DNA from: an uncultured virus (IMG/VR IMGVR_UViG_2061766007_000545) | Lineage: Duplodnaviria; Heunggongvirae; Uroviricota; Caudoviricetes | Reading direction: 5' to 3' (one strand) | Virus record (IMG/VR): IMGVR_UViG_2061766007_000545 | DNA length: 64,000 bases | Shown here: positions 9,338-26,564 of the stretch, piece by piece | Numbering within the stretch: the first letter of the stretch is position 1 | Layout: each line of letters starts with the position of its first letter | Notes under the pieces: model-generated | The model's input: the letters and a program-made list of their open reading frames with translations, nothing else | The model's database searches: none | What the model was told of the DNA's origin: nothing | Program-made: the position numbers and the translations under genes

Positions 9338-9697
9338 ATGGATAAGAATGAGATGACTAAGAGAGATTTCTACACTGCAATTGTAGAGGGTAACGTAACT
9401 GATGAGGTTAAGGAGTTTGCTAAGGCTGCTATCGCAAAGCTTGATGCGGTAAATGAGAAGAGACGCAACACTCCGACTAAGGCGCAGAAGGAGAACGCAG
9501 AGCTTGTGGATAAGCTTGTGAATGAGATCCTTGGCGACGTTGCGAAGACTGCGGTTGACATCGCTGCTGAGTTTGGTACTATGACTCACCAGAAGGCTAC
9601 CGCTATCGCTAAGGCTGCCGTTAACGCTGGACTTGCGAAGGTTGAGGACGTTAAGGTTGCGGGCAAGGGTACTATGAAGGGTTATGTACTTGCATAG
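9338..9697 (+). CDS. putative winged-helix DNA-binding protein (paralog of 15508-15888)
   Basis: C-terminal helix-turn-helix-wing pattern DIAAEFGTMTHQKATAIAKAAVNAGLAKVEDVKVAGKG. Confidence 0.6.
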   Translation: MDKNEMTKRDFYTAIVEGNVTDEVKEFAKAAIAKLDAVNEKRRNTPTKAQKENAELVDKLVNEILGDVAKTAVDIAAEFGTMTHQKATAIAKAAVNAGLAKVEDVKVAGKGTMKGYVLA

Positions 9698-9743: not shown

Positions 9744-10110
9744 AAGGAGATTTCTAAGGAGATTTAACGTAGAAGCCTGCGCGCGGTCGTAGCTGTACGG
9801 ACATTAACAGCCTTGGNNNNNNNNNNATTTCTAAGGAGATTTGACGTAGAAGCCTGCGCGCGGTCGTAGCTGTACGGACATTAACAGCCTTGGGCGCAGT
9901 GTGCGTAGCTCCTGTCAAAATTTGACAGCCGTCAAAAACGTACTCCAGGTCGTAGCTGCGCAGCTTGCAGCTCCTCAAAATTTGACAGGGCGTATATTTG
10001 GATGGTATATGGTTTACTGTGTGGAATACGCACACGACCGAAAATTTGACAAAAGTGGAAATTAGACCTTAAAGGTCTAATAAAAAAAGAACCGCATTTG
10101 CGGTTCAAAT

Positions 10111-10290
10111 TTATCCAAGATAAATTATTCTTTCTTCATCATCAATTCCAATATTGTCCCAAATTAAGTTATGCACTACTCCTTCTTCTTCAGTAAACAC
10201 ACAGTAATTAGAAGGAAGTTCTGACAAAATTGAAATTAAATCTTTTACTGTAAGGATATCTAACCATTTTTTATTCTTTGGCGGCTTCAT
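10111..10290 (-). CDS. hypothetical protein (59 aa)
   Basis: MKPPKNKKWLDILTVKDLISILSELP; followed by terminator hairpin at ~10082-10106. Confidence 0.55.
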   Translation of the reverse strand: MKPPKNKKWLDILTVKDLISILSELPSNYCVFTEEEGVVHNLIWDNIGIDDEERIIYLG

Positions 10291-10477
10291 TTTCTTTTTC
10301 CTCTCTTTCCAAAAACTTTAGTACTTTTGGTACATCCTCTTGCGCGACATCATAAGTGCCATAAAGAATGCCTCGATAGTCATTAAAGTGAACACAAGTT
10401 CCATCAAGGTCGATTGCGTCAACTTTATTCAAGTTTACATAATAGCCATCAATTAGTTTTACAAAATTTCTATTCAT
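10271..10477 (-). CDS. hypothetical protein
   Basis: ORF in 4-gene cassette. Confidence 0.65.
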   Translation of the reverse strand: MNRNFVKLIDGYYVNLNKVDAIDLDGTCVHFNDYRGILYGTYDVAQEDVPKVLKFLEREEKENEAAKE

Positions 10478-10484
10478 TTTATTC

Positions 10485-10766
10485 TTACTCCATTTCTGCT
10501 ACTTCTTCACAAGAACAAAATTCACATACACTAAAACTTGTTCCACCACTTTCTCTATAAGATTCTTCAAGTTCTTCAAGCATAGATTCTCTCCGTTCAG
10601 CAGGGTCAAAATCTTCCTCGTCACAGTAGTCATAAAATTCACAAAAGTCATCGTCCTGAAGATTCATTATTTCTTCTTTAACAATCTCATAGGCTCTTTT
10701 TACGGATTTACATACATAATTTGTACCTTCAAAACCGCTATCATCATAATTAACTAATGCTAACAT
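10485..10766 (-). CDS. small highly acidic protein
   Basis: RBS AAGGA; D/E-rich. Confidence 0.7.
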   Translation of the reverse strand: MLALVNYDDSGFEGTNYVCKSVKRAYEIVKEEIMNLQDDDFCEFYDYCDEEDFDPAERRESMLEELEESYRESGGTSFSVCEFCSCEEVAEME

Positions 10767-11091
10767 TTTTTATTTCCTTTCCTTCGGCTAAATCTTTCAT
10801 TTTTTTATAGCGTGTAATAATATCTCTTATATCTTTATCAACATAAGCCTGAAGTTCTGATAAAAATGTTTCTTTACTACAAGGATAATATTCTGCTCGG
10901 TTTGACCACCAAGCTTCTTGTCTTTTGAAAAATTGAATAGAATCATCTAATTTAATATGATTATAAGTTCCGCTTGCATACATAACACAATAAATAGGCT
11001 TGTTATCATTATCGTAGACTATGTTATTTTTTTCATCTAAAAATTCTTCTGCCCCTTTAATAATTACAAAATCTCCATAACGTATTTTCAT
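10750..11091 (-). CDS. hypothetical protein
   Basis: RBS AAAGGAG directly after promoter. Confidence 0.75.
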   Translation of the reverse strand: MKIRYGDFVIIKGAEEFLDEKNNIVYDNDNKPIYCVMYASGTYNHIKLDDSIQFFKRQEAWWSNRAEYYPCSKETFLSELQAYVDKDIRDIITRYKKMKDLAEGKEIKNVSIS

Positions 11092-11217
11092 ATTATTTCT
11101 TGCTCCTTTCCTTTTCTTTATCTATATTATATCATACTTTTAGGAAAAGTCAACACTTAGTTCTAGACCTTTAAGGTCTAGTTTTATTTTAGAGAAAATT
11201 CGATTCTCCCCTTGGGG

Positions 11218-11670
11218 TTACTCTGTTTTGAGTAACCCCTTCAATACCTCAATAATCTCTTTTTCGGTCTTTGCTTCCGAACCACTCAGCGCCCAACCCT
11301 TGCGCACCTCTGCATTGTCATCAAAGAGAAAACCCTTGCGACCTTCGTGCTTTGGCGTGCCGTAGCGCACAACTTCAATCGAGTTAAACTTCACACTCTT
11401 GAGGTGAGTGGCGAGCCACTTCTTCTTCGTGCGCTCCACCTCTCTATCAAATTCAGGAGTAGCGGTAGCGGAACTCCAAGAGATAATCCCAATAAAATAT
11501 CCCTCATTCTGAAGCCGATTTAAGAGCCGAGCCAAAAGGCTCATATTCAACAGGGGCGCGCAGATTGCGTAAGGGCGAGGATTAAATTCCTTTAAATCAT
11601 CAATCCAAGTCGACACTCCGTAGAAGTCCGCAATCGTTCCGTCCATATCAAACCAAATTTCCTTAACCAT
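11218..11670 (-). CDS. HAD-superfamily phosphatase, 5'-nucleotidase-like
   Basis: IWFDMDGTIAD motif I, IISWS motif II, LFDD motif IV. Confidence 0.8.
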   Translation of the reverse strand: MVKEIWFDMDGTIADFYGVSTWIDDLKEFNPRPYAICAPLLNMSLLARLLNRLQNEGYFIGIISWSSATATPEFDREVERTKKKWLATHLKSVKFNSIEVVRYGTPKHEGRKGFLFDDNAEVRKGWALSGSEAKTEKEIIEVLKGLLKTE

Positions 11671-11832
11671 TTTTTTATTTCCTTTCTTTTTCTTTACACC
11701 CTTATTATACACCCATCAAACTAAAAAGTCAATCTCTTTTTAGGAAACAAATTAGACCTTTAAGGTCTAACTCTGCGGAAGAACGAAAGCGGAATTTCTT
11801 CCGCTTTCGCCCAAAGAAAAGAAAGGTTAAGA

Positions 11833-12582
11833 CTATTTAAGTCGAACTGTCGCTTTCGTTTTCTCGTACCGAATAGAGTTACAAGTAGTTTCATAAACCA
11901 CTTCATTATCTTTAATTACTCTAAACGGCTTTTCTACCTTGCGCTCGATACTACGAGGACAATCATAATCTTTCGTAAGGTCAGCGCCCATATCTAAACA
12001 ATAAAGGAGGATTTCGGTTTCAATTCTGCTATCACTCAATGCGGTGTGGTCTTCGATAAAAAGTACATTCTGCGTAAGGTAGCGATAGACAACCTCTGCG
12101 GTAGTGCTGTAGTTTCCGCTTTCGGTAAAGTAGTTATTTTCGGTACAAAAGTTTTTGTAGTCATCATCTACAATAAACTCGATTGCGTAGCCCCTAATGT
12201 CGTGAATCGGCATCTCATCAAATGGATTAAGGTTTTTATACCAATCACAGTTGAAGTCAAAGACTCTTTCATCAAAAGAACTATTAAAGGCGTAGGAGTG
12301 TTTTACTTCATACTCTCGGAAGTCCTTTCGCATCTGCCTACAAATGTAGCCGAATTTGTCCATTACTGTTTTGCGCTGACGCATAGCCGCCACATAAATT
12401 TCACGCTTGTCAGCATAGTAAGCGGAGCTAAACAAGGGCAAATTGTGCCATACCTGTTCTACTACAAAATCTCTCTCGACAAGGGTTTTGCGGGTTTCAG
12501 TGTTTACAATCACATATCCCACATTGTAACAGAACGGCTTGTCGAGAGAAGTCGTTTCCGTATCAAAAACACAAATATTCAT
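11833..12582 (-). CDS. DEDDh 3'-5' exonuclease (DnaQ-like)
   Basis: VFDTETT (ExoI), AFNSSFD (ExoII), HTALSD (ExoIII). Confidence 0.85.
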   Translation of the reverse strand: MNICVFDTETTSLDKPFCYNVGYVIVNTETRKTLVERDFVVEQVWHNLPLFSSAYYADKREIYVAAMRQRKTVMDKFGYICRQMRKDFREYEVKHSYAFNSSFDERVFDFNCDWYKNLNPFDEMPIHDIRGYAIEFIVDDDYKNFCTENNYFTESGNYSTTAEVVYRYLTQNVLFIEDHTALSDSRIETEILLYCLDMGADLTKDYDCPRSIERKVEKPFRVIKDNEVVYETTCNSIRYEKTKATVRLK

Positions 12583-12726
12583 TTCTTTTTGTTTCCTTTC
12601 TTTATCTTATGGCTTTATTATACACCTAAAGAAAACAAAAGTCAATACTTTTTTAAGGAATTTTCGGTTTTCTTTCGAAGATTTTCTAGACCTTTAAGGT
12701 CTAATTCAGATTGAAGAAAAAGCGGA

Positions 12727-13068
12727 TTACTCCGCCTTTTCTTCTTTTGCCTTGCGCTTTTCTGCGTCCTTCGCCATTTTTTTAGCTTTCTTCTTTTCGG
12801 CTTCCTCGGCTTTAATCCGTTTCTGCTCGACCTCAAAAGCATAATTGGAGGATTCAGCGTAGCCGTCATAGTCCTCTCCGCCACGAGTACCTGTAGGGAT
12901 AGAGAACACAGCCTTTACCCAGCCTTCTTCCATATCTTCGCCCACTACTTCGAGGGCAAGACCATTCGAGGCGACAACGAGGACAGTGTACCCCTCGGAT
13001 TCGAGATAAGTACGAACTTTGTCCATAATTTCGTTACGGCAAGGATTTAACTTTTTAGTATTTACCAT
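12727..13068 (-). CDS. hypothetical protein with Lys/Ala/Glu-rich tail
   Basis: Own promoter and RBS AAAGGAG. Confidence 0.75.
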   Translation of the reverse strand: MVNTKKLNPCRNEIMDKVRTYLESEGYTVLVVASNGLALEVVGEDMEEGWVKAVFSIPTGTRGGEDYDGYAESSNYAFEVEQKRIKAEEAEKKKAKKMAKDAEKRKAKEEKAE

Positions 13069-13199
13069 TGGCTTTTTGCTCCTTTCTGTTTCTTACACCC
13101 TTATTATACTACTATAAAAAGAAAATGTCAACAGTTTTTTTATAAGAAATTTTAGGGGAATTAGACCTCTAAGGTCTAACTACGTAGAAGGCGCGCCTT

Positions 13200-13433
13200 C
13201 TACTTCGCAACATATAATGCTAAAGAAAGAACGAAGATTGTAATTATATGAGTTACTACGAAAAAGAAAGTAGATTTTATTTCACAAAAGCAATCACAAA
13301 AATTTTCCCAAAAAGTGAATTTTTCTTGATAAAAATCTTCAAGTGCTTCTTTATTTTCTTTTAATTCTTTTATCGTCGCTTTAATCCATAAGATTTCGCC
13401 AATTATTAGCATCACAATCCAAATATATTTCAT
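13200..13433 (-). CDS. small two-TM membrane protein
   Basis: Hydrophobic termini; RBS AAAGGAG. Confidence 0.65.
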   Translation of the reverse strand: MKYIWIVMLIIGEILWIKATIKELKENKEALEDFYQEKFTFWENFCDCFCEIKSTFFFVVTHIITIFVLSLALYVAK

Positions 13434-13434
13434 T

Positions 13435-13695
13435 TTATACTCCTTTATAAAACATAATCAAAAAGAATACATTAAGTACAACACCGCTTAGGTGCATAAC
13501 CAAGCCGTTAATATGACGGTCGCTTGTCAGGTCTTTTACGATACCAACGAGCGCAATGAACAAGCCAAACCACGCAATACTTAATCCGAAAATCATAATC
13601 AAAATTACATTAAATACAGTTGCAAGGCATCTTAAATCGTTCCATTCAAATTCATAATCCTTTTCAATTTTAAAAAACTGTTTTACTTTTTCCAT
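13435..13695 (-). CDS. membrane protein
   Basis: Multiple hydrophobic segments; RBS AAAGGAGA before MEKVKQ. Confidence 0.7.
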   Translation of the reverse strand: MEKVKQFFKIEKDYEFEWNDLRCLATVFNVILIMIFGLSIAWFGLFIALVGIVKDLTSDRHINGLVMHLSGVVLNVFFLIMFYKGV

Positions 13696-13802
13696 CGGTC
13701 TATCTCCTTTCTTATGAATTAAGTATACCATAAGAAAAAGAAAAAGTCAATGATTTCTTTTTTAGGAAGTTAGACCTTTAAGGTCTAACAAGATTGTTGT
13801 GG

Positions 13803-14048
13803 TTAATTTTCCACAACAATATCATCAGAAATAAGAAAGTCAAGGAACTTTATTGTCGATTCAAAGTCGTCATCGTCATAGACTTTGTCATCGTCATCTT
13901 CAACGGACATGGCCCAAGTGTATCCTCCCATCACATCTGCGAATTGTCTGCGCAATTTTACTAGTTTATTAACCATTGAAATAATTTCATTTCTTTCATC
14001 GTCTGTAAGATATAAAAAAGCTCTATTATCTCTACGCAATTCTGCCAT
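13803..14048 (-). CDS. acidic hypothetical protein
   Basis: RBS GGGAGG. Confidence 0.7.
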   Translation of the reverse strand: MAELRRDNRAFLYLTDDERNEIISMVNKLVKLRRQFADVMGGYTWAMSVEDDDDKVYDDDDFESTIKFLDFLISDDIVVEN

Positions 14049-14051
14049 TTT

Positions 14052-14306
14052 TTATTCCTCCCATTTTTCATAAATTTCTGCTTCAAGTACTTCATAATTA
14101 TCAGACAAATCCGCATATTCCCACTCTTGTTTTGCTTTTGTTATAGCTTCCTCGTCATTAGAAGCGCTTACTGTAACAATAGCAGGGATTTTTACATATA
14201 CTCCTACTGTATACTCTTTAGTGGGACAATGTTCTTTCTCCCAATTTTGTGCTTGCCACAGTGTATCAAAAATTTTTCCATCATTAGTTTTATAAACTGT
14301 TTGCAT
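14052..14306 (-). CDS. hypothetical protein
   Basis: First gene after promoter; YKTNDGKIFDT N-terminus. Confidence 0.75.
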   Translation of the reverse strand: MQTVYKTNDGKIFDTLWQAQNWEKEHCPTKEYTVGVYVKIPAIVTVSASNDEEAITKAKQEWEYADLSDNYEVLEAEIYEKWEE

Positions 14307-14449
14307 TTTAGTATTTCCTTTCTTCTTTCTATGGTTTTATTATATCACACTAAAGTGAAAAGTGCAAGTCTTTTTTAGAAAAGGAATTAGACCTCTAAGG
14401 TCTAGTTCTACGTAGAAAGCGCGCCACCATTATCGGTGGCGGTGCGCCT

Positions 14450-14917
14450 TCACTTAAGGAGGTAATCTACTATATGACAAAGGAAGAAATGTCGTTTAAT
14501 AAAATCGATTGCCCAATCGGTTGCGTCCCATTCGCTTTTCATTTCAAAGTGGAGTACGGCAGCCGAGTTCCATTCTTTCTCGTTATCAGCAATCGAGCAA
14601 AGTAATTTTACAAGTGCGTCTTTCTCTTGCTCTGCTATTGCATCTTCTTCGGTATCAGCTTTTATATGTCCGATTTCGTGGAGTATAGTCCAAAGAAATG
14701 GAGAATAGTTTCGAGCGTTCTTGAATTTGTGGCGCTTTTCAATATGACTTATGAATAGGTCATCTGCGTCCGTATGGTTAAGATTTAAAATTATATAAGG
14801 AGGCTCATCAAAGACGCACTGATTTTCGGAAGTACGAGAGATAAAAACCTTACCTTCTTTTTTCAAAATAGATTTTGCAAAAATATTTGTGATAATTTCT
14901 TTTGCTTTCAGATTCAT
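14450..14917 (-). CDS. HExxH-motif protein (possible Zn metallopeptidase)
   Basis: WTILHEIGH and downstream EWDATDWA; RBS GAGGT before MNLKAKE. Confidence 0.6.
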   Translation of the reverse strand: MNLKAKEIITNIFAKSILKKEGKVFISRTSENQCVFDEPPYIILNLNHTDADDLFISHIEKRHKFKNARNYSPFLWTILHEIGHIKADTEEDAIAEQEKDALVKLLCSIADNEKEWNSAAVLHFEMKSEWDATDWAIDFIKRHFFLCHIVDYLLK

Positions 14918-15045
14918 CTGCCGTACCTCTCTTTCACTTTCTAAAACAAGTATAACATAAGAGAAAAGAAAAGTCAATCACTTTCTTTAAGGTAGATTAG
15001 ACCTTTAAGGTCTAGATAGATAAGAGGATTTAGTCCTCTTTTGTT

Positions 15046-15342
15046 TTAAATTTCTTCTGCGTCTTCTATTCCATTAAAATAGTTATTAATATCCTCTTCG
15101 GTTGCTTCCTGTACTTCATAGTAGCAACCATCCTGATACCACTCTATTGCATTTTCATACTCTTCTTCATTATCAAAATTGTCTGGTTCTCCTACGAGAT
15201 ACTCATAAAGAGAAGAGTAGTCATATAATCCTTCTTCCATCCAATCTTCTACTTCGCGCGGACTTTCTGCTAAAAAAAGATGGTATTCTTCAGTGCCACA
15301 GTATGGAGTAGAGTACTTTCCAATATAATATTTCTTTGCCAT
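15046..15342 (-). CDS. small highly acidic, Tyr-rich protein
   Basis: Own promoter, RBS, terminator. Confidence 0.75.
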   Translation of the reverse strand: MAKKYYIGKYSTPYCGTEEYHLFLAESPREVEDWMEEGLYDYSSLYEYLVGEPDNFDNEEEYENAIEWYQDGCYYEVQEATEEDINNYFNGIEDAEEI

Positions 15343-15507
15343 TTTATTTCTCCTTTCTTTTGTAATTTTATTATACTCCTTTTAAATAAAAAAGTCAATA
15401 ACTTTTTTAATTTTTCTAGACCTTTAAGGTCTAACTTCTCTTTGAAAAGTGGGGCGGAGTTCCACCGCCCCGATGTCCTAAAATTTGCGCTTGGGGAGGG
15501 AAGCCGA

Positions 15508-15888
15508 CTACTCGGCTTCTACCTCATCGGCATCGGCTACCTTGTAGGCAACCTGCTCGCCCTTACCCTTGACCTTAACCTTCTCGGTCACAAGTGCGCC
15601 CTCGTTCACAAGCAAACGAGCAACTCCCGTAACCTTCTGCGTGGTCAGACCAAGAGCCTTAGCGATTTCCGTACCAAGAACAGCGCCCTTGTCCTCAAGG
15701 AAAGCGAGAATCTCTGCCTTGACAGGCTCGTTCTCCTTCTGCTTCTTGTTAGGGGTGTTCTTGCGCTTCTCGTTCTTTGCATCAAGCCCCTTAATCAGAG
15801 CTACACGCTTTGCTTCGTCATCTCCCTGAAGATTGTACTTTGCAAGTCCTTCAAGGAATGCTCTCGTTGTCATAATCTCTACTGCCAT
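15508..15888 (-). CDS. putative winged-helix DNA-binding protein (paralog of 9338-9697)
   Basis: EILAFLEDKGAVLGTEIAKALGLTTQKVTGVARLLVNEGALV; shares LDAxNEKRxNTPxKxQKEN with 9338; two tandem promoters (~15943-15972, ~16045-16074). Confidence 0.65.
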   Translation of the reverse strand: MAVEIMTTRAFLEGLAKYNLQGDDEAKRVALIKGLDAKNEKRKNTPNKKQKENEPVKAEILAFLEDKGAVLGTEIAKALGLTTQKVTGVARLLVNEGALVTEKVKVKGKGEQVAYKVADADEVEAE

Positions 15889-16270
15889 AATGTTTTTCCT
15901 TTCTTGCGGTTTGGTCGCAACCCTTTCTCTTTTTTACACTTTTATTATATCACAAGATTTTCGGTTTGTCAAGAGTTTTTTTAATTTTTTTTGAATTTTT
16001 TTTTGAAGTGCTTTGCGCTCTTGCCTTTCCTTATCTTGTAACCTTATTATACTACCGAAAAGAGAAAAAGTCAATCCCTTTTGAAAAGATTTTTCGGAAT
16101 AAATTAGACCTCTAAGGTCTAATTAAATACCACCATGAATAGGATCCCGAAGGTTTTTTAACCTATTCTCTCTGTGCTTATTGGTGGTGATAAGCCCCTC
16201 ACTTACGCAGCAGGCGCGCTTTGGTAAGATAGGAAACTCGTCCTTGCGCATTATTCTTACTCAAAGTTGA

Positions 16271-16343
16271 TGATGCTCTGATGGGACTCGAACCCATACC
16301 CCCAGCCAATAAGGCTGATATTCTGCCAATTAAACTAAGAGCA
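16271..16343 (-). tRNA. atypical tRNA-like gene, anticodon UAU (Ile-like), possibly degenerate
   Basis: TGCTCT-TAGTTTAATTGGCAGAATA-TCAGC-CTTATTG-GCTGG-GGGT-ATGGG-TTCGAGT-CCCAT-CAGAGCA-TCA; canonical D and T loops, imperfect acceptor stem. Confidence 0.6.
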
Positions 16344-16601
16344 TTTTAGGTAGACCGTTTCTCGTATGGTTCGAAAACTAAAAAGATGGTCAGTCTTTTT
16401 AAAAAATAACCCTCACTTTATCGGCGAGACCGCCACAGTTCCGTATGTGGGACTTACGAGAAGAGGTATCCGAAGTTTTATCTCGATTTATTATCTCCGT
16501 TCCTTACCTTCTGAAGTAATTATATCATAGAAGAATTAAAAAGTCAATACCTTTTTAGGAGAGTTATCTAGACCTTTAAGGTCTAAGTGTAATCCGTATT
16601 T

Positions 16602-17002
16602 CTACGGATTCTGTAAAAGCATATTGATACTATCGGCAAAATCTTCTTCTTCCTCTTCTTCATCAGGAAACATTTTCTTACTACACTCCTCGCACATACC
16701 GAGAATCATTTCTCTTTCTCCTGCGGTAAGATAAGGGAATGCTTTCTGAACAAGTTCGCCTTCTTCAAACTCCCAAAAGTCATCTTCGTTTACCCAAATA
16801 GAAGCACATTTTCTGCACCATCTACAAGAGCAAAGCATCTCGACTTCTTTATGATTCTCTTTCTTTTCATGCAGACGCTCGTGCGCATTGTCCACCGCAT
16901 CTCTTAATTCTTTCTTTGTTGCAATGTCATCTTCGTAAGCAGTAATCATATTTGCAAGATACTCGATAAAATCTTCCNNNNNNNNNNAATAAAATCTTCC
17001 AT
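16602..17002 (-). CDS. hypothetical protein with Cys clusters (gap near start)
   Basis: MEDFIEYLAN...CSCRWCRKC...CEEC. Confidence 0.65.
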
Positions 17003-17119
17003 TAGTTTTTCCTCTCTTTCTTTTTTGTAACTCTACTATAGCATAGAAAGCGCGCAATGTCAATAGAAAGAGTTAGACCTTTAAGGTCTAATTAGTTCCA
17101 CGGATTTCCGTGGATTAAA

Positions 17120-17488
17120 TTAGTACCATCGAGTAAAAATATGATACTGAAGTTTTGCTTTTGAAAAAATTTCTTGGTTTCTCATAAAAAATTCTTTTGC
17201 TTTATCGAGAAAATTACTGAATTCCTCTATATCTTCTATAGGAAATACTTCATTTACAAGTTCTTCTAAAGAAGAGAAATGAATATCTCTATCCTTTATT
17301 GGGCGCCAATATCCAATAAAAACATCATCTGCGGTATACGCATCTCTAATTAAGACCAAATCATTATCAACAATATAGTCGTGAAGTTCTCCTCCGCCTA
17401 TTTCTGCAATAGAGTCAAGTGCATTTTCAAAATCATTTTCACGAATCATAATCCCATATCCTATTACAACTTCGCATTCTACTGACAT
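17120..17488 (-). CDS. hypothetical protein; cargo of the cassette missing in the alternate haplotype
   Basis: Own promoter and RBS AAAGGAGA. Confidence 0.75.
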   Translation of the reverse strand: MSVECEVVIGYGIMIRENDFENALDSIAEIGGGELHDYIVDNDLVLIRDAYTADDVFIGYWRPIKDRDIHFSSLEELVNEVFPIEDIEEFSNFLDKAKEFFMRNQEIFSKAKLQYHIFTRWY

Positions 17489-17806
17489 TTTCTTTCTCCT
17501 TTCTTTTTATAATTTAAGTATACTATAAACCATTAACTTTGTCAATCATATTTCAGGAAGTTTATTAGACCTTTAAGGTCTAATACTACGTGGAAAAGAA
17601 AAGGGAATAAATCCCTTTTCTTTCCTATGAAGAATATGTGTATCATTATAAGCGCTATCTAATGCGCTCATATANNNNNNNNNNACATAGAAAGCGCGCA
17701 ATGTCAATAGAAAGAGTTAGACCTTTAAGGTCTAGTTCTGCGTGGAAAAGAAAAGGGAATAAATCCCTTTTCTTTTCTATGAAGAATATGTGTATCATTA
17801 TAAGCG

Positions 17807-18335
17807 CTATCTAATGCGCTCATATACAACACGATAGGAGTAGGCTTCGGTTTTGCCACTATGACCATATCCTTTATAAACTGTAGTATCTTTTACCTTA
17901 CTCCGAACCTTAACAAGTTTAAGGTANNNNNNNNNNAGCTTCAGTTCTGCCACTATGACCATATCCTTTGTAAACTGTAGTATCTTTTACCTTACTCCGA
18001 ACCTTAACAAGTTTAAGGTAACCCTCGTTTACTAAATCGTAAAAAGCGCAAACTGTAGAGCGAGAGGCTCCCCACTTACTACCGGGCGTAATCAAATCAC
18101 CAATCTTCGTGTCGTTGAGAATCTCTTTCTTTCGTCTGTCGATACGAACATTATTCGATCTGCGCTCGCTTTCATTGATAATAGTCCGAATAGCGTCATA
18201 ATAAGCAAAATCAGCTATTGAATCTTCAGAGGGACTAAGCACAATTTCAATAGCCTTACTTACGTCCTTTTCACCGTGCAGATAATACTTCTGACTTACT
18301 TCCATTTTTTCAAATCTGTCGTTTAACTTTACCAT
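17807..18335 (-). CDS. hypothetical protein (3' end duplicated across gap)
   Basis: MVKLNDRFEK...GYGHSG(K/R)TEAYSYRVVYERIR. Confidence 0.65.
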
Positions 18336-18482
18336 TTCTTTTTTTCTTCCTTTTCTTTTTTTATTTTAGAAGTATCTCTCTTCTATGATTAAAGTATACC
18401 ATAAGAGAAAAGAAATTGCAAGTCTTTTTTAAGAGATAAGTTAGACCTTTAAGGTCTAGTTTTGGTTGAAGAAAGAGAGGGA

Positions 18483-18782
18483 CTATGCCCTCTTCTTTAA
18501 CTTTTCAACTTCGCGCTTGTATGCATTGGCATACTGCAGGGGATTGTCATACGGAATGACTTTCTTTTCCTTAAGAGCCTTGCGGTACTTAGTGGCTCGT
18601 ACTTCGTCAGCGCGCGACCTTGCATCGCGTTCATCATCAGTTAACCCATCCCATCCGATAAGAGTAGCCTTGAGGTCTGCGCCCTCTACTTCGCGCGATG
18701 CCTGTGCGTCTGCAAGTGTGCTTACAACCATTCCATCAATTTCGCCTTTTTTATTAAGTTCTGCATATACAAGTTTGTTCAT
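18483..18782 (-). CDS. hypothetical protein
   Basis: Own promoter, RBS GAGGT, terminator overlapping stop. Confidence 0.75.
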   Translation of the reverse strand: MNKLVYAELNKKGEIDGMVVSTLADAQASREVEGADLKATLIGWDGLTDDERDARSRADEVRATKYRKALKEKKVIPYDNPLQYANAYKREVEKLKKRA

Positions 18783-19324
18783 ATTAGGATTACCTCTCTC
18801 TTTCTTTATTTTGTAACTTTATTATATCATTTTTTAGAAAAAAGTCAATAGTATGAATTAGACCTTTAAGGTCTAACTCTGCAGACGGCGCATTATAATG
18901 CGTCGTCGCCTTTGAAATTCTTAAACTTATCCCAAAGCACAATCGTTACGGAAGTAATGCAACCTGCAATAAATCCAAATAATGCGCCAAATACAAATCC
19001 AATTACTGCTCCCATTTTTCTACCTCGGCTCTAATATTATATGGAGATATAGTTTTATCTTCTTCGCAACAATATGCGTTAAAGGGGCACTCTCTACACT
19101 CTCCCATATCTTCACAAGCATCTACGATACCTTTCATCGCCTCAATCATTTTTGCTTGCGCGTCATTAAGTTCTATTTTCTTTTCTGGNNNNNNNNNNTT
19201 ACGCAGACGGCGCATTATGATGCGTCGTCGCCTTTGAAATTCTTAAACTTATCCCAAAGTACAATCGTTACGGAAGTAATGCAACCTGCAACAAATCCGA
19301 ATAATGCACCAAATACAAATCCAA

Positions 19325-19775
19325 TTACTGCTCCCATTTTTCTACCTCGGTTCTAATATTATATGGAGATATAGTTTTATCTTCTTCGCAACAATATGCG
19401 TTAAAAGGGCATTCTCTACACTCTCCCATATCTTCACAAGCATCTATGATACCTTTCATTGCCTCAATCATTTTTGCTTGCGCGTCATTAAGTTCTATTT
19501 TCTTTTCTGGAGAAGGCATTATCTCTTCTTCAAAAGTTTTCTTCAAATATTCCTCAAAACTTTCAAGAAAAGCGTTCTCTTCCCAANNNNNNNNNNTTTT
19601 TCTTCAAATATTCCTCAAAACTTTCAAGAAAAGCGTCCTCTTCCCAATAAAAAATATCGCCAACATTATCCGCAAAGTTACTCATTAACTGACCGAATCT
19701 CCAATCGGGGCAATACTTCTTATGAAGTTCCTTAATCTTCTCGTAAAATTCATCAAGTCTATTTGCATCTCTCAT
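19325..19775 (-). CDS. hypothetical protein with CxxCPF Cys cluster (split by gap; allele at 19003-19188)
   Basis: MRDANRLDEFYEKIKELHKKYCPDWRFGQL joins EEYLKKTFEEE...CRECPFNAYC. Confidence 0.6.
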
Positions 19776-19792
19776 TTTACTTTTCTCCTCTC

Positions 19793-19957
19793 TTAATAAT
19801 CCCAACCGAACATCTCACGCCATTCATCATCTTCTTCATCAGCGAAACAGCCGATAAAAACAAAAGCCTCTTCTTCTTCATAGGGAGTATCATCTCTGTA
19901 ATACTCTTCGGGAGTTACGAAAGCATCAACTCTTTCATCATAAATAAATCTTGCCAT
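19793..19957 (-). CDS. small acidic protein
   Basis: RBS GAGGT before MARFIYDE. Confidence 0.65.
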   Translation of the reverse strand: MARFIYDERVDAFVTPEEYYRDDTPYEEEEAFVFIGCFADEEDDEWREMFGWDY

Positions 19958-20089
19958 TTTAATTACCTCTCTTTCTTTGGCTTGCGCCTTTTCTTTTTTA
20001 CAAGTAAAGTATATCATAGAAAAGAAAGAATGTCAACCGTTTTCTAAAAATTTTCTTAGACCTTTAAGGTCTAACTATGGAATGGGATT

Positions 20090-20419
20090 TTATTCCCATT
20101 CCTTGAACCATCTATCCATTTCTCTAATAAGGTCGAACCAATATCTATCGAGGAATTCTTCGATTTCTTCAGACCAATCAAGGTCAAAATCATCTTCTAT
20201 CCAACTAAAGCAACCCTCAAATTCACTTTCAATCCAAAAGCGAACTTCATTCTTGAGTCTTTCGGTAATATTTTCTCCATAACGATAAATTGTATCAAGG
20301 TCTTTATAAATTTCTCCAATATAGTCATAATCACTATTATAAAGAGATTTGGTCATATTGTCATAAAGTTTTGAATAAAACTCATCTTCGCTTCTTCGAG
20401 ATTTGAATTTAAGTTTCAT
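20090..20419 (-). CDS. acidic, Trp-rich hypothetical protein
   Basis: Own promoter and RBS. Confidence 0.75.
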   Translation of the reverse strand: MKLKFKSRRSEDEFYSKLYDNMTKSLYNSDYDYIGEIYKDLDTIYRYGENITERLKNEVRFWIESEFEGCFSWIEDDFDLDWSEEIEEFLDRYWFDLIREMDRWFKEWE

Positions 20420-20543
20420 AAGTAGTTACCTCTCTTTCTTTACTGTGATTAAAGTATATCATATACCTTAATTTTTGTCAATCCTTTTTAAAAAAGAAAA
20501 TCGGAATAAATTAGACCTTTAAGGTCTAACTTGGTTTGGCGCA

Positions 20544-20759
20544 TTACCATGCGCCTTCACGACACGATTTTAATTCTTCCAACCACTGAATCATTTGGTA
20601 GTTCCATTCTTTCTGATGGGCAACCCATTTTAATTCATCTTGATATTCTCGGATAACGCTTTCTGCGTCTTCCTCACAATAGATTTTTTGTTCTCTTTCT
20701 TCTGCTTCTTGGTATTTCATTCTATAATAGAGAATTGCGCTATTTAGTTCAAATTTCAT
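20544..20759 (-). CDS. hypothetical protein
   Basis: Overlaps upstream gene end; RBS AAAGGA. Confidence 0.65.
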   Translation of the reverse strand: MKFELNSAILYYRMKYQEAEEREQKIYCEEDAESVIREYQDELKWVAHQKEWNYQMIQWLEELKSCREGAW

Positions 20760-21090
20760 TTTTGGTTCCTTTCATAATTGCTTTACAGTTAGGGCAGAAG
20801 TTATAACTACATTTATTATAATCATTTTTTACTACTTCTCCACATTCGCTACACTTGTAATAGTATCCATAAGTTTCGCCCATTCCGCAACCTTCGCTCC
20901 AATAACTACCTCTTATCCACATTCCGACTTTATGTTCTTCGTAAGATTCTTCTTCATCATCTGCTTTGATGGTCGGAGCAAGATGTATATAATTCCAAAA
21001 GGCGCAATCCTCTTCGCAACCCGGCATTTTACGGCACATTTCTGTACACCACTTTTCTTGCAAAGCATCAGCATCAATCAATCTTCCCAT
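20749..21090 (-). CDS. zinc-ribbon protein
   Basis: MGRLIDADAL start; CSECG...FCPNC. Confidence 0.75.
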   Translation of the reverse strand: MGRLIDADALQEKWCTEMCRKMPGCEEDCAFWNYIHLAPTIKADDEEESYEEHKVGMWIRGSYWSEGCGMGETYGYYYKCSECGEVVKNDYNKCSYNFCPNCKAIMKGTKNEI

Positions 21091-21248
21091 TTTCTTTTTG
21101 CTCCTTTTTATGAAAGTTTCTCTTTCTTTATCTTTCTAAAAAAATTATATCATATTTTTGGAAAAATTTCAAGTTTTAATTTTCTTTTCTTGTTAGACCT
21201 CTAAGGTCTAATTACCCCTTCTGCAGAAGGGGCGGTATTGCATCTATA

Positions 21249-21563
21249 TTATAGAGGATAAGTATCCTCTAATAACATTCCAACAACTATTTCGATTACA
21301 TCGTTAGCCGTAAGCCAACCACGAACAGTATCTCCGCATTCGTCCTCGTCTACGATACAGCCCATAATCTCGAGCAATCCATCTTCGTGACCATAGCTTC
21401 CGCTATGGCATACGGCATCCCAGGCACGGCTATTATCTTTTGAATAAACAACAATCTGCGCACCATCAAAGAAGGTCTTAAAGGTAAAACGAAAATTATT
21501 CGTCGCCAACCAACAACAAAGTTTTCCGAGTTCCGTAAGGTTAATTGCTTCTTTTTCTTTCAT
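21249..21563 (-). CDS. hypothetical protein
   Basis: WDAVCHSGSYGHEDGLLEIMG; own promoter and RBS. Confidence 0.75.
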   Translation of the reverse strand: MKEKEAINLTELGKLCCWLATNNFRFTFKTFFDGAQIVVYSKDNSRAWDAVCHSGSYGHEDGLLEIMGCIVDEDECGDTVRGWLTANDVIEIVVGMLLEDTYPL

Positions 21564-21733
21564 ACTGCTTAACTCCTTTCTTTTACTATACTTATTATAA
21601 TATATAAAAAACAAAAAGTCAACACCTTTTTAAAACTTAATTAGACCTTTAAGGTCTAACAAATCAATTGCTACACCGGGGCGCGCCAACAACGCACGTC
21701 CCGGCGGGTTCTGACACCTGTTTTCCTTCAGGC

Positions 21734-21907
21734 TTAGTACACATCGTAGGGATACCACTCAGACTCTTCTTCGGTCATTACCGTAACAAGCTTAGGACTT
21801 TCAAAAAGTCTTTCAGCAAAGAGAATAGCCTGTAGTTTATCATTTGCGTTTACGAAGAAATCTTCGCCCGTTTCTTCATCATTAAATAAGTAGTACATTT
21901 CTTTCAT
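21734..21907 (-). CDS. small acidic protein (57 aa)
   Basis: MKEMYYLFNDEETGEDFFV; RBS GAGGT; own promoter. Confidence 0.7.
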   Translation of the reverse strand: MKEMYYLFNDEETGEDFFVNANDKLQAILFAERLFESPKLVTVMTEEESEWYPYDVY

Positions 21908-22032
21908 ATCTGTTTACCTCTCTTTCTTTTGTAACTAAAGTATATCATAAGTAAGAAAGAATGTCAAGTACTTTGGAAGAGATTTGTTAGACCTATAAGG
22001 TCTAATTACCTCCCTTTCGGGAGGCGGAGGTT

Positions 22033-22341
22033 TCAACAGTATATTAAGGAATAGTTAGCCCACTTAAATATTGAAATTTGGTTACACTCACGTCCGAGCG
22101 CCAGCGCTTTTTTCTTCGTGCTGATGCGCTTCGACTTATCAATATACCAAATTCCATTTTCAAGCCACAAACCACAATTTCCGTTGTAGCGCTTCATTAT
22201 CGAGCGCACTTTTGTGATGTCGGTTGTGGTTTCGCCTTCTGTAGCTACTTGATAGCCACTTTTATAATTTATAATTTTACCATCTTTAAGAGTAAGACCG
22301 CCATTATTTTCGATTTTGCGAAGTGTTCTGATGTTTATCAT
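22033..22341 (-). CDS. basic hypothetical protein
   Basis: Own promoter; RBS GGGAGG. Confidence 0.75.
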   Translation of the reverse strand: MINIRTLRKIENNGGLTLKDGKIINYKSGYQVATEGETTTDITKVRSIMKRYNGNCGLWLENGIWYIDKSKRISTKKKALALGRECNQISIFKWANYSLIYC

Positions 22342-22859
22342 TTTTTGTTCCTCCCTTTTCTTACTATAGTCATTATATCATATTCAATTTAATTTGTCAA
22401 TCATTTATAAAGAGATGAATTAGACCTTTAAGGTCTAATTCAGATAAGGAAAAAAGAGAGTTCGCGACCTCTCTTTTTTCCCCAAGTTCTCGAGTTACTT
22501 GTCTTTTTTCATTCTTTGCTTTGCGGATAAAGATAAACCCTTCTGCAGAGAGTTTCCTCGGTTTTCTTGTATGCTTTGCGATGGAAAACCGCCCACTCTC
22601 AAGTCTAAAAGAAACCGTACCCCATAAGGAAAGTAACTACACACAACCCAACCTCTTGAGTCGATTGCCCTCACCACTCCTCAGTATCACCTCGTTGCTT
22701 ATCTCTTATGTTGGTTTTAGTATACCATAGAAAAAGAAAAAAGTCAATACTTTTTTAGAAATAAATTCAGATAAATTAGACCTTTAAGGTCTAGATTCAA
22801 TGCACGAAGCGCACTTTGGTCGCTTCATGCACAAGATAATTTGACGCTAAAAGATTTAC

Positions 22860-22958
22860 TTATCTCAAATAGTTATTTGCGATAAAAATAATAATGTCAA
22901 TAAAACCCGAAATTGCAATAAGAATTTTCGCTACCACTTTAAGAATCATATTTTTCAT
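22860..22958 (-). CDS. 32-aa hydrophobic peptide
   Basis: MKNMILKVVAKILIAISGFIDIIIFIANNYLR; RBS AAAGGAGA; sole cargo of its cassette. Confidence 0.6.
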   Translation of the reverse strand: MKNMILKVVAKILIAISGFIDIIIFIANNYLR

Positions 22959-23083
22959 TTTTGTTATCTCCTTTCTTTTTGTAATTAAAGTATAACATAG
23001 ACTTTATTTTTTGTCAATACTTTTCTGAAATAAAAACTAAATAAAATTAGACCTTTAAGGTCTAATAATAAAAGAAGAGGACA

Positions 23084-23293
23084 TTAGTCCTCTTTAATCC
23101 CTAAGATTTTAAAGTAGTCATCGAGTTCTGCCAGCGCCACTTTAGGGTCTCCCTCTTGGAGAGCTTCGCCTAAAGCAAGGAGAGAATACCGAGCCGCGCT
23201 AATCGCGAGACTCTGATTAGTATTTAATTCATGAAATGCTCTTGCATCTTCGAGTTTGTCTAACATTTTATTAATAAGTTCAAAGTGTGTCAT
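23084..23293 (-). CDS. hypothetical protein
   Basis: Own promoter, RBS, terminator. Confidence 0.75.
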   Translation of the reverse strand: MTHFELINKMLDKLEDARAFHELNTNQSLAISAARYSLLALGEALQEGDPKVALAELDDYFKILGIKED

Positions 23294-23407
23294 AGTGTTT
23301 ACCTCTCTTTCTTTTGTAACTTAAGTATAACATAGAAAAGTTAAAATGTCAACCACTTTTTGGAAGTTAAATTAGACCTTTAAGGTCTAACTTTATTTGG
23401 AAGAGAT

Positions 23408-23683
23408 TTACTCTTCCATTTTCGCACCACACCACGGACAGTATGGAGTAAGTAACTCTTCCGTGCATACTTGCCAACCACATTCGGAACATTCAAAAGT
23501 ATCGACAAGAAAAGGATTTACTTTTATCCATATTCCTTTCCGTTCCTCGTAAGGTTTTAGAGGACAGTTATCGTCTCTCTTATTGTTCAACCAACCGTTT
23601 GCCAATCCGTACTCGCATCGAGTTTTTAATTGGCACTCGGAACAACTGTTCGGCATATTCATATTTGTTAAAATTACGCTCAT
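23408..23683 (-). CDS. zinc-ribbon protein
   Basis: MPNSCSEC and CSECG...YCPWCGAKM. Confidence 0.75.
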   Translation of the reverse strand: MSVILTNMNMPNSCSECQLKTRCEYGLANGWLNNKRDDNCPLKPYEERKGIWIKVNPFLVDTFECSECGWQVCTEELLTPYCPWCGAKMEE

Positions 23684-23874
23684 TTTTGTTTACCTCCCTT
23701 TTTGTAATTAAAGTATATCATACACTTTTAATTTTGTCAATCACTTTTAGAAAAACTTTTCAGATTAAATTAGACCTTTTAGGTCTAACTCATAAAATAC
23801 CGCGAGAGCGCGCCTAGTCTCCCAGCAGCGCGCCCTCGGGCATAAGGAGGTGTGCTATGATTTTTGATAACGAG

Positions 23875-23966
23875 AGGGATAGGTGGGAGTCGAACCCACG
23901 AGCCTACAGAGCTTGTAAGTCTTAAGCCTTACAAGGGCACAGACAATCCGGTCTGCTAACTATCCC
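23875..23966 (-). tRNA. non-canonical tRNA-like RNA with CUUAAGA (Leu UAA-like) loop
   Basis: 7-bp acceptor GGGATAG/CTATCCC, T arm GTGGG-TTCGACT-CCCAC, 6-bp D-like stem, 8-bp anticodon-like stem; no encoded CCA. Confidence 0.6.
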
Positions 23967-24231
23967 ATATTTACCGCGAGGGAAGGAAAAGCGGAGGAAT
24001 TTTTTGAGGAATTTCTTTTTCCTTCCCTCATCTTCTGACGTAAGTATACCAAAATTTTTGAGAAAAGTCAATACTTCGAATTAGACCTTTAAGGTCTAAC
24101 TCTACGAAAAAAAAAGAGAAGTCTTTCGACTTCTCTACGGGATTACTCCGATTAAACTTTTCAAACCCATCCTACGGGCGTTACCGCGTAGGCTTAGCTA
24201 CTGAGTGTCTTTCTTTCCCGATTTATAAAAG

Positions 24232-24402
24232 TTAGTTCCTTACTCTATAATAAATAAGGAAGTACTTTTTGATACAACTGAACCGCTCACCATCGAGCGT
24301 CCAAAACTCATCATAGCTACCGCGACGTCCTTCGCGCGCGAGTGCGTCCAAGATAAGGTCTTTTTTTCTTTTTGAATTTACTTTTACAATCTGAATTGTC
24401 AT
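24232..24402 (-). CDS. hypothetical protein (56 aa)
   Basis: MTIQIVKVNS...GRRGSYDEFWTLDG; RBS AAGGAGG; own promoter. Confidence 0.7.
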   Translation of the reverse strand: MTIQIVKVNSKRKKDLILDALAREGRRGSYDEFWTLDGERFSCIKKYFLIYYRVRN

Positions 24403-24609
24403 TGTAGCATTCCTCCTTTTCTTTTATACACTGATTATACTACAAAAAACCGATTCTGTCAAGTGATGCGCGCTCGATAAAACTAGACCTTTGAGGTCTA
24501 ACTTTATTTCGGGAATAGTTATGCGATCGTTCTGAATATTTATTCATGAATATTTATTCAGTAAAAAGTGTATAAAAAAAAGAGCGGGATTTCTCCCGCT
24601 CTTTTCGGT

Positions 24610-25171
24610 TTAGATTTCGTCATCGAAGAGACCGAGGTCATCTTCCCAATCTCCCCAATCTTCAATATAATCTTCGTCAAGACCGAAGTCATCGAGAAGA
24701 GACTTGAAGTAGGTATCCCAATCAGGTTTCGGAATCGGGGCGGGAATTCCATCTTCCGCCCATTCCTTGAGGAGCGTCCAATCCCAATCGCCCCATTCCT
24801 CTTCGTCATCATCAACCTTCCAAAGAAGTCCGCCATACATATTGCCATCGGCATAGGCNNNNNNNNNNGGGTTTCGGAATCGGGGCGGAAATTCCATTTT
24901 CCGCCCACTCTTCGAGGAGCGTCCAATCCCAATCGCCCCACTCCTCTTCTTCGTCATCAACCTTCCAAAGAAGTCCGCCATACATATTGCCATCGGCATA
25001 GGCAAGACAAGCGCCCTCTTCGTCAAGCAATTCCAATTCAAACTTTTCGAAGTAGACCGTTGACAGCACAGTCAGTCTATCGTTAAAGAGAGTGCTTGCA
25101 ACATCAAGGTCAAAGTAGTGGTTTTCGATAATCTCAAGGGTCTCAAGGTTAGTTAATCTTAAAGTATACAT
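24610..25171 (-). CDS. very acidic Trp/Asp/Glu-rich protein (internal allele duplication at gap)
   Basis: MYTLRLTNLE...DDEEEEWGDWDW...DWGDWEDDLGLFDDEI; terminator ~24575-24606. Confidence 0.7.
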
Positions 25172-25710: not shown

Positions 25711-25995
25711 GCTGGAGTACCTAGAGAGACTTTATAATGGACTACTTGCTACTCAGAACGTAAATGGCACGCTTCAAGAAGACCAGGCTTTTAAGATTTG
25801 TAAGATTTCGTATGAGATTGATAGTAGAATTCGTGCGGGCACGGATTTTGATAAACTATTAAGTTCATATGATAAGCTTTTGAAAGAAGCCGATTTTACT
25901 CCGAAGAATGTTAAGAATATAAATGATTTTGATTCTTTTGGAGAGGTTGCGCGTTGGCTTGAGAAGAATGGATGGAAAAATAGGTATTATGATGA
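25711..25995 (+). other. Misplaced fragment that probably fills the gap in the 28734-29696 gene
   Basis: Bounded by N-gaps; LEYLERLY...KNRYYD reads plausibly between ...NYDDE(A) and VTRDVVDETI. Confidence 0.75.
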
Positions 25996-26042: not shown

Positions 26043-26564
26043 CTACTCTTCGTAGAAGTCCGCCAAAATCGGCTGATTGTTGCAACATTCCCAAATGTAA
26101 TTTGCGATTGCCTTGCTTGCCTTAGGGCGCTTGCTATCGCTTACATAAAAGGACTGAATGTGCATTCCGTCGGACGCCTTGCGGATAAACTGTCCTCTTC
26201 CGTCATATCCCTCAAGGAAGTCAATCCATTCTTCCTTGCTGAATACATAAGCCTGAAATTCAGGCTCGATGTTCAAGTCAACATCGGGACAGTAGATAAT
26301 CCACTTTACAGACTTTGCAAGGCTGTCGTCTAACCGTCCGCAAGCGGACTTAATTTCGACCGTTTCGGACTTTCCGCCAAAAACCTTTGAACGAATGTCC
26401 GCCTTGCCCTGACTCTTTACCTTATAATCCTTGCGTCCGCTCATATAGTAGCGAATTGCTACCTCGAAAGCCTTACCAACAAGCCCGTCATCAATGATAG
26501 CGGTCTCGGCATTTGCAAGCCTTTTTCCGATATAGGAATTCATAAAGTCAATAGTATTGAACAT
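26043..26564 (-). CDS. putative PD-(D/E)XK (restriction endonuclease-like) nuclease
   Basis: GKAFE helix, KADI, VEIKS in the expected order; RBS GAGGT before MFNTIDF. Confidence 0.55.
   Translation of the reverse strand: MFNTIDFMNSYIGKRLANAETAIIDDGLVGKAFEVAIRYYMSGRKDYKVKSQGKADIRSKVFGGKSETVEIKSACGRLDDSLAKSVKWIIYCPDVDLNIEPEFQAYVFSKEEWIDFLEGYDGRGQFIRKASDGMHIQSFYVSDSKRPKASKAIANYIWECCNNQPILADFYEE

Follow-up and report, generated by a model that had tools for sequence, protein, structure and literature searches.

Coexisting alleles of a bovine gut phage differ by one whole early-gene unit, joined at a 19-bp palindrome

The closest described counterparts of the system reported here are the promoter-early stem-loop (PeSL) cassettes of T4-type phages (Arbiol et al., 2010, PMC2839356; Comeau et al., 2014, PMC4122927). 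The first of these papers describes PeSL-bounded insertions and deletions (indels) and mini-circles in the T4-type phages RB49 and phi1, and proposes that a gene is excised or inserted, along with the promoter and terminator belonging to it, when adjacent repeats recombine (PMC2839356). A paper on ORFan deletions in cyanophages mentions PeSLs only to set them aside (PMC4503421). Our literature searches led to these PeSL papers, but none of the papers found dealt with an array of sequence-specific palindromes in phages of the rumen or gut. Here we describe such an array in IMGVR_UViG_2061766007_000545, of which a stretch of 64 kb (the window) was analysed; it is the scaffold of an uncultured siphovirus-like phage, and the public runs with matching DNA are labelled bovine gut metagenome. 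In the early region of this phage, 28 copies of a 19-bp palindrome bound about 27 gene units, and we show that a major allele carrying the unit with open reading frame (ORF) 17120-17488 coexists with a minor allele that lacks exactly that unit, the joint lying inside the palindrome. What is new is this deletion allele within one population, with its approximate frequency, together with two more such events in another study.

The array and the features around the variable unit (the cassette) are as follows.

10062 to 24501, minus strand: palindrome array; the 19-bp YTAGACCTTTAAGGTCTAR occurs 28 times and delimits about 27 early-gene units.
16602 to 17002, minus strand: gene A, downstream neighbour of the cassette; PHROG 20898, unknown function.
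17035 to 17063, minus strand: gene A promoter; TTGACA, 17 nt, TGcTATAGT; 9 nt from the palindrome.
17073 to 17091, no strand: palindrome at the left end of the variable unit; the alleles diverge at its last base.
17092 to 17564, minus strand: cassette body, with hairpin 17098-17113, ORF 17120-17488, ribosome-binding site, promoter 17517-17545 and a 19-nt spacer.
17565 to 17583, no strand: palindrome at the right end of the variable unit.
17592 to 17625, minus strand: terminator-like hairpin after gene C in the cassette-bearing allele; 80-nt stretch with -19.2 kcal/mol, z -7.0.
17685 to 17926, no strand: contig Z, the minor allele, with the gene A promoter flank, one palindrome, and the terminator and 3' end of gene C.
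17937 to 18335, minus strand: gene C, upstream neighbour of the cassette, first 133 codons.

Contig Z comprises 242 nt between two gaps of ten N each (17675-17684 and 17927-17936). A first-pass annotation, made from the letters of the window, had claimed that this contig represents an alternate haplotype lacking exactly one cassette, and a base-by-base comparison bears this out. To the left of its palindrome, 17686-17716 is identical to 17042-17072, the left flank of the copy at 17073, in 31 of 31 bases, and the divergence from that flank starts only at the very first base of the contig (17685 against 17041). From the palindrome onwards, 17717-17826 matches 17565-17674, that is, the copy at 17565 with its right flank, with 4 differences in 110 positions (17583/17735, 17585/17737, 17588/17740 and 17624/17776). 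In contig Z the palindrome (17717-17735) has the sequence TTAGACCTTTAAGGTCTAG; in the copies at 17073 and 17565 the last base is A. The final codons and the stop codon of gene C are located at 17807-17843 of contig Z, equivalent to 17655-17674 in the other allele, and the remainder (17844-17926) differs from 17938-18020 in 3 of 83 positions; altogether the deletion allele carries 7 private single-nucleotide polymorphisms (SNPs) over 193 aligned bases. Exactly one unit of 492 bp (17565 minus 17073), with ORF 17120-17488 and its promoter, is missing. The longest identical block common to both ends of this unit is 20 nt long and consists of the palindrome plus one base and nothing else. The variable ORF encodes, on the minus strand, an ORFan of 122 amino acids (aa) without a match in Pfam or PHROG, for which three homologue clusters with 77-91% identity were found, none of them named.

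In order to judge contig Z, the make-up of the scaffold has to be considered. The window, with a G+C content of 36.9%, contains 38 runs of N, 35 of which have a length of exactly 10. After 16 of the 38 runs, the following contig opens with a copy of the preceding contig's end that is 1-6% divergent, and after 9 further runs it copies the end of some earlier contig. Because contigs after N gaps copy earlier contig ends in this way, the scaffold is made of coexisting strain variants placed one behind the other; the duplication across 17675-17684 is not peculiar to this site, and ORFs that span such gaps are broken only on paper. Gene A is also split, by a ten-N gap at 16978-16987, which we regard as a scaffold artefact because public contigs omit 23 positions at 16965.

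Separately made k=31 contigs of four public runs were compared with the window over 9827-24858. Allele depths were taken from run X3 alone, as run X4 is thin at the cassette; X3 stems from a sample that may be the source of the assembly. In X3, a flank contig of 8209 nt (9827-17090, depth 143.1) ends inside the palindrome and is continued by two paths, a cassette path of 558 nt (17061-17618, depth 108.3) and a deletion path of 66 nt (17705-17770, depth 31.5), neither of which shows any difference from the window. The 66-nt contig is made up of 12 nt of gene A flank, the palindrome and 35 nt of gene C flank. When the runs of 31-mers private to each allele were computed from the window, they amounted to 17061-17618 and 17705-17770, which are exactly the two path contigs of X3; the two alleles part at the final palindrome base (A or G), where the bubble opens, and meet again past the last nearby private SNP. 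The leftmost 31-mer of the 66-nt contig contains the 12 gene A flank bases and the entire palindrome with the private G, and since the shared repeat is only 20 nt long, a false path at k=31 is impossible. The depths of the two branches sum to 139.8, compared to 143.1 for the flank, and from these values the cassette-less allele would account for about 22% of the population in X3.

The first-pass annotation had named a junction without read support as the mark of an assembly chimera; the k=31 contig of X3, which spans 17705-17770 at a depth of 31.5, contradicts this possibility. Its further argument, that the private SNPs speak against a simple misjoin, also holds, as a chimera of the major allele would not carry the SNPs on the right side. 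We conclude that the cassette-less minor allele is very probably real.

Similar events were found at other palindromes. Runs X5 and X6 belong to a different study and contain a strain that is 3-6% divergent from the window. The phage of X5 and X6 lacks two whole units that are present in the window.

13770 to 14405, minus strand: unit absent from the X5/X6 phage; skip from 13778 to 14396, that is, 13779-14395, 617 bp.
16104 to 16586, minus strand: tRNA-Ile(tat) unit absent from the X5/X6 phage; skip from 16104 to 16569, that is, 16105-16568, 464 bp.
16272 to 16343: tRNA-Ile(tat) gene within unit 16104-16586.

The length of each skip is that of one palindrome spacing; at the joint 7-9 bases are ambiguous, and the shorter side has 255 letters. 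The same strain keeps the cassette, as one contig of 6543 nt is continuous through 16569-17674; in X5/X6, 17674 is joined to 17937 by 16 letters identical to 17827-17842 of contig Z, which reveals the continuation of the major allele. The three one-unit indels (492, 617 and 464 bp), each with its joint inside palindromes, support the proposal that cassettes are gained or lost at the palindrome, and clean presence or absence of a single unit was seen in 3 of about 27 units, across the two studies. Over longer times, the few cassette ORFs common to the related phages G001, L020 and L022 (see below) keep their relative order, and most of the intervening units are unshared. Within 20056-23037, the X5/X6 contigs further contain a joint that goes back from 21952 to 20056 (33 other letters lie in between) as well as skips near 20098-21901 and 20763-21106, which suggest a rearranged or additional unit. 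We disregarded joints of X3 and X4 whose shorter side comprised only 21-27 letters, such as that from 11691 to 15942.

With up to 3 mismatches allowed, 28 palindrome sites were observed, compared to 0.03 expected from shuffles. Every unit is read on the minus strand, and the order of parts is always the same: after the preceding gene has ended come a variable hairpin with trailing Ts, the palindrome, a spacer rich first in T and then in A, the -35 and -10 elements, the ribosome-binding site and ATG. The promoters consist of TTGACA or TTGACT, a spacer of 16-17 nt (17 in 24 of 27) and usually TGnTATAAT or TGnTATACT, and they are followed by a strong ribosome-binding site; in 26 of 27 units at least 10 of the 12 positions of TTGACA-N16-18-TATAAT are matched, mostly with the TG extension, and the weakest promoter, that of the unit at 10062, matches 8 of 12 consensus positions. 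The variable hairpin with its Ts, which is richer in G+C and precedes most palindromes, is a predicted terminator on grounds of sequence and folding. The palindrome itself, as single-stranded DNA, can form a hairpin of 8 bp (-5.9 kcal/mol, z -3.7). The intervals between copies measure 271-1198 bp and contain promoters and ORFs or tRNAs. Most of the array ORFs have no match in Pfam or PHROG, and nearly all are ORFans. In two palindrome-bounded units tRNA genes are present instead of or beside ORFs, one being the tRNA-Ile(tat) unit listed above and the other the following.

23874 to 23966: tRNA-Thr(tgt) gene within unit 23770-24099.

Two side observations concern the copies as such. The odd central base gives the palindrome an orientation, which is the same relative to the genes in 27 of 28 copies, the last copy at 10062 being flipped. 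On the gene strand, a motif similar to CGYAGAR directly precedes many palindromes (for example, 13180-13190, 14406-14416, 17584-17592 and 17736-17744), and 3 of the 4 private SNPs that separate the minor from the major allele (17565-17674) lie in this motif.

The distance from the palindrome to the -35 element is quantised. Among the 27 promoters, gaps of 9 (n=5), 17-20 (n=15, exactly 19 in ten), 28-29 (n=6) and 40 (n=1) were counted, and a Rayleigh test at a period of 10 bp gave R = 0.93, with a nominal p of about 7e-11 if the units are independent. Counted from these gaps, the centres of the palindrome sites lie at about -54, -64, -74 and -85, and the quantised gaps keep the palindrome on the same side of the helix with respect to the promoter. 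Among spacers of equal length the similarity is only 46-54%, compared to 30% after shuffling, which indicates that spacer length rather than spacer sequence is conserved.

Four related phages (G001, L020, L021 and L022) have the same architecture, with portal proteins 37-50% and terminases 51-63% identical to those of the window. In G001 (IMGVR_UViG_3300031994_000047) the palindrome core of the window is present in 9 copies. The palindrome of L020 is TTAGATGTAYYACATCTAA, in 21 copies, with a gap of 8-10 in 16 of 21; that of L021 is TTAGACGTAATACGTCTAA, in 22 copies, with a gap of 9-10 for all 20 well-scoring promoters; and that of L022 is TTAGACGATAGTCGTCTAA, in 25 copies, with gaps clustering at 20-23, 30-35 and 60-67. 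The outer TTAGA...TCTAA is constant, and the inner triplet is uniform within each genome, being CCT in the window and TGT, CGT and CGA among L020, L021 and L022. This concerted change of the triplet, together with the phasing, argues for a DNA-binding protein of two-fold symmetry, probably encoded by the phage, and against a mere hairpin.

Scanning for exact copies of the palindrome gave two loci among viral contigs, one of them (L002) an unrelated single match, and 12 distinct loci among metagenome contigs. One of the latter (L012) is the G001 record, five (L005, L006, L009, L013 and L014) are short contigs with arrays of 2-4 copies, one (L011) has two copies 1.4 kb apart with no convincing promoters, and five are single matches; none of the 12 metagenome loci has DNA in common with the window outside the repeat and promoter. 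In 185,579 representative bacterial and archaeal genomes, the scan found 3 isolated single matches and no sign of prophage arrays. In G001, a second repeated motif (approximately AAATTATGAACAAATTGTAAACA) lies between each palindrome and the promoter at 65488-70334 (L003 9489-14335), in many cases with a GTTAGTCACAACTAAC hairpin and a CCCGGGCG box in front of it, a more complex module than that of the window. The portal gene of G001 (52512-53957) contains 4 in-frame TAG codons, which suggests that TAG is read as an amino acid in this phage; the late genes of the window are open under the standard code.

The reading that we prefer, at a probability of roughly 0.6, is that of a phased regulatory palindrome which doubles as a homology-driven crossover point between units, in a PeSL-like manner. 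The main job of the palindrome would be regulation, as a docking site for a two-fold symmetric DNA-binding protein that would have to face the promoter from one side of the helix. As the longest identity shared by neighbouring units, and the only long exact repeat common to them (20 nt here), the palindrome would also be the place where crossovers occur. Homology-driven recombination between copies, by the recombination machinery of phage or host, would then excise or insert whole working units, as has been proposed for the PeSL cassettes of T4-type phages. The minor allele may have arisen either by loss or by gain.

Several points weigh against this reading. X3 is independent of the assembler and not of the reads, which are probably those of the scaffold; the depths used are means per contig and not exact measures; and the support for the junction is at the level of assembled contigs. 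Among the 15 of 25 joints examined, there was no circular or tandem joint of the 492-bp cassette and no back-joint. In G001 the gaps between palindrome and -35 element are 43-59 and 94, with no clear period, and in the window the quantised gaps could in part reflect common descent of promoter modules. The palindrome-binding protein is a hypothetical one. Finally, the block shared by the unit ends is the palindrome alone, so that homology, cleavage and slippage are not separated by it.

A candidate for such a protein is encoded at the head of the array.

26043 to 26564, minus strand: array-head gene, 173 aa; unnamed family, D..ExK motif, restriction-endonuclease-like predicted fold.

The array-head protein has no match in Pfam or PHROG and no GenBank phage encodes it; the 61 homologues found are all unnamed. 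The residues D56, E70 and K72 are invariant in 29 aligned sequences (the query and 28 of the 61 homologues). For the structure model (predicted local distance difference test, pLDDT, 88.8) Foldseek found no match in the PDB at E <= 0.001. In a wide search with VIA-align, however, the top 25 rows were nearly all PD-(D/E)xK nucleases acting on palindromic or branched DNA, with a best structural Z score of 6.9. This top match is 3ndh, a restriction endonuclease bound to its substrate DNA (root-mean-square deviation 4.1, 130 residues aligned), and further matches were NhoI (6.4), the homing endonuclease I-Ssp6803I (5.0) and Hjc resolvases (4.3). All three viral loci found to encode a homologue have a palindrome array directly adjoining the gene, which makes a partnership of protein and array likely, and the product of 26043-26564 is our modelled candidate for the palindrome binder. 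Upstream of this gene, at 26690-26750, a larger inverted repeat GCTTGACTAT...ATAGTCAAGC surrounds a single half-site TTAGACC; it may be the control region between the early and late gene blocks. Winged-helix (MarR-like) proteins were considered as partners too. Such genes are present at 9338-9697 and 15508-15888, and homologues exist in L020 and G001 (just before the first palindrome). A winged-helix protein was rejected as a consistent partner, there being no homologue in 20 kb of L021 or L022.

If the array-head protein were a nuclease, it might nick or cut the palindrome, and repair of the break through annealing or strand invasion at another copy would remove, insert or swap units. We regard this as a doubtful explanation that nevertheless has substance. 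The invariant D56, E70 and K72, the confident model and the resemblance to PD-(D/E)xK enzymes speak for it, as do the three viral homologue loci, which all adjoin an array and each have an inner palindrome triplet of their own; a perfect two-fold 19-mer is also what would be expected as the site of a homodimer. However, G001 has the same palindrome and no homologue was found there by genome search and local tblastn (94 kb, from a record that is 76% complete). Moreover, the Z scores are below a safe level and Foldseek had no match, a nuclease that cut the genome encoding it at 28 sites would require control, the helical phasing to promoters points to transcription and not to cutting, and joints with 7-20 ambiguous bases give no readable signature of cleavage. 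In a more far-reaching version, palindrome and array-head gene would form a dedicated cassette-exchange system of a clade of large rumen and gut phages. Controlled breaks at the lineage-specific palindrome would allow whole units to be excised, captured and swapped between co-infecting phages, and the system would be a nuclease-and-homology counterpart of the integron in which the protein-site pair doubles as a timing switch of early promoters. We consider this version unlikely.

Replication slippage between the palindromes, acting as 20-nt hairpin-forming direct repeats without any recombinase, seems quite unlikely to us. It would fit the 20 identical bases that the unit ends share, with nothing else, and the 8-bp hairpin of the single-stranded palindrome, and precise deletion between short direct repeats flanking hairpin-forming DNA is known from transposon excision in E. 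coli. However, slippage accounts for loss only and not for the lineage-specific units that are inserted between conserved ones in related phages, and 464-617 bp are long distances for this process.

Very improbable, in our view, is an assembly misjoin or library chimera formed at the palindrome. The scaffold is poor: it contains 38 N runs, strings alleles one after another and apparently has at least one small contig in the wrong place; in addition, palindromes can promote template switching in vitro. Against this stand the depth of the junction in the separate k=31 assembly, which is far above noise, the branch depths that sum to the flank, the SNPs of the joined allele on its right side and the two further one-unit deletions in another study. 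An integron-like origin, with the palindromes as attC-type sites recombined by a tyrosine integrase, is scarcely credible: single-gene cassettes in an array bounded by palindromic sites would suit it, and some copies read GTTAGAC...GTCTAAC, which we take to resemble integron core sites, but the flanking G is missing from most copies, none of the 57 ORFs scanned in the window, which is part of the genome, matched an integrase or resolvase family, and the site is a 19-bp perfect palindrome with an own promoter per cassette and not an imperfect attC of 57-141 bp.

Outside the array, the window resembles a siphovirus. On the plus strand, 27-57 kb contains a sigma-like gene, terminase, portal, a tape-measure protein of 1924 aa and tail genes, and on the minus strand, 57-63 kb contains a RuvC-like resolvase, dUTPase and anaerobic ribonucleotide reductase with its activase. 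A comparison of the late region with GenBank phages by megablast gave no match at the DNA level. The nearest cultured matches of the portal, at up to 29% identity, are large phages of Enterococcus, Bacillus and Brevibacillus (Firmicutes). The sigma-like protein (27049-28422, PHROG 5767) adjoins the array and is kept in all five related phages; its cysteine-rich, zinc-ribbon-like C-terminal tail weakly matches endonuclease VII and Lar-like families. A contig of 285 nt (25711-25995) seems to have been misplaced by the scaffolder, as its homologue in L020, L021, L022 and G001 sits within the gene that matches 28674-29696 of the window, at an insertion point that corresponds to the gap of 237 N at 29189-29425.

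Our results indicate that accessory genes of this phage are gained or lost one unit at a time. Small accessory genes of phages often include genes for host takeover and anti-defence, and their turnover has mostly been inferred from comparisons of isolates. Here, the process is caught inside one natural population, in which about four fifths of the genomes contain a full expression unit and the remaining ones lack precisely this unit; another study yielded similar events at two further units. The palindrome that forms the seam is sequence-specific and helically phased; it changes in concert from one related phage to another, and in most cases a nuclease-like gene accompanies it. It thereby becomes testable whether accessory-gene turnover is tolerated by a regulatory repeat or actively driven, and such arrays offer natural insertion points for the engineering of these phages.

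Compared to known systems, the array-head protein has the D..ExK motif and its best fold matches in common with PD-(D/E)xK enzymes (type II restriction endonucleases, I-Ssp6803I and Hjc), but it differs from them in having no sequence-family match, Z scores of only 4-7 and a nuclease activity and target that are putative. A CRISPR array is a poor model, as the repeat has 19 bp and not 23-50, and the intervals of 271-1198 bp are coding and not short non-coding spacers of similar length. In CAP class I promoters and at the p4 sites of phage phi29, upstream regulator sites work only on one face of the helix. The present array is similar in that a two-fold site lies upstream of the -35 element at distances differing by whole helical turns, but differs in that one site type serves about 27 near-consensus promoters; because these promoters are already near consensus, repression or timing control is as likely as activation. 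Integrons share with the array single-gene units that are bounded by palindromic sites and gained or lost as a whole. The attC sites of integrons are imperfect palindromes of 57-141 bp with R''-L''/L'-R' boxes, and integron cassettes are mostly devoid of promoters; in the present case, in contrast, no integrase is found among the 57 ORFs scanned in the window, and each cassette is equipped with a promoter and a predicted terminator of its own.

The PeSL cassettes of T4-type phages remain the nearest parallel. In both systems, dense repeats occupy an ORFan-rich early region and combine a strong sigma-70-type promoter with a stem-loop, and close relatives differ by whole ORFs bounded by repeats, in our case by indels of 492, 617 and 464 bp. 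However, PeSL stem-loops are variable in sequence and position and act as terminators, whereas the repeat described here is a nearly invariant 19-bp perfect palindrome, separate from the variable, predicted terminator hairpin and at a helically quantised distance from the -35 element, and related phages have changed it in all copies at once. Furthermore, the polymorphism reported here exists within one natural population and that of the PeSL case between two isolates, and the phage of the window is not T4-like, as seen from its 1924-aa tape-measure protein, siphovirus-like late module and non-T4 portal matches. The palindrome array thus works like PeSL but is not a strict member of the PeSL family.

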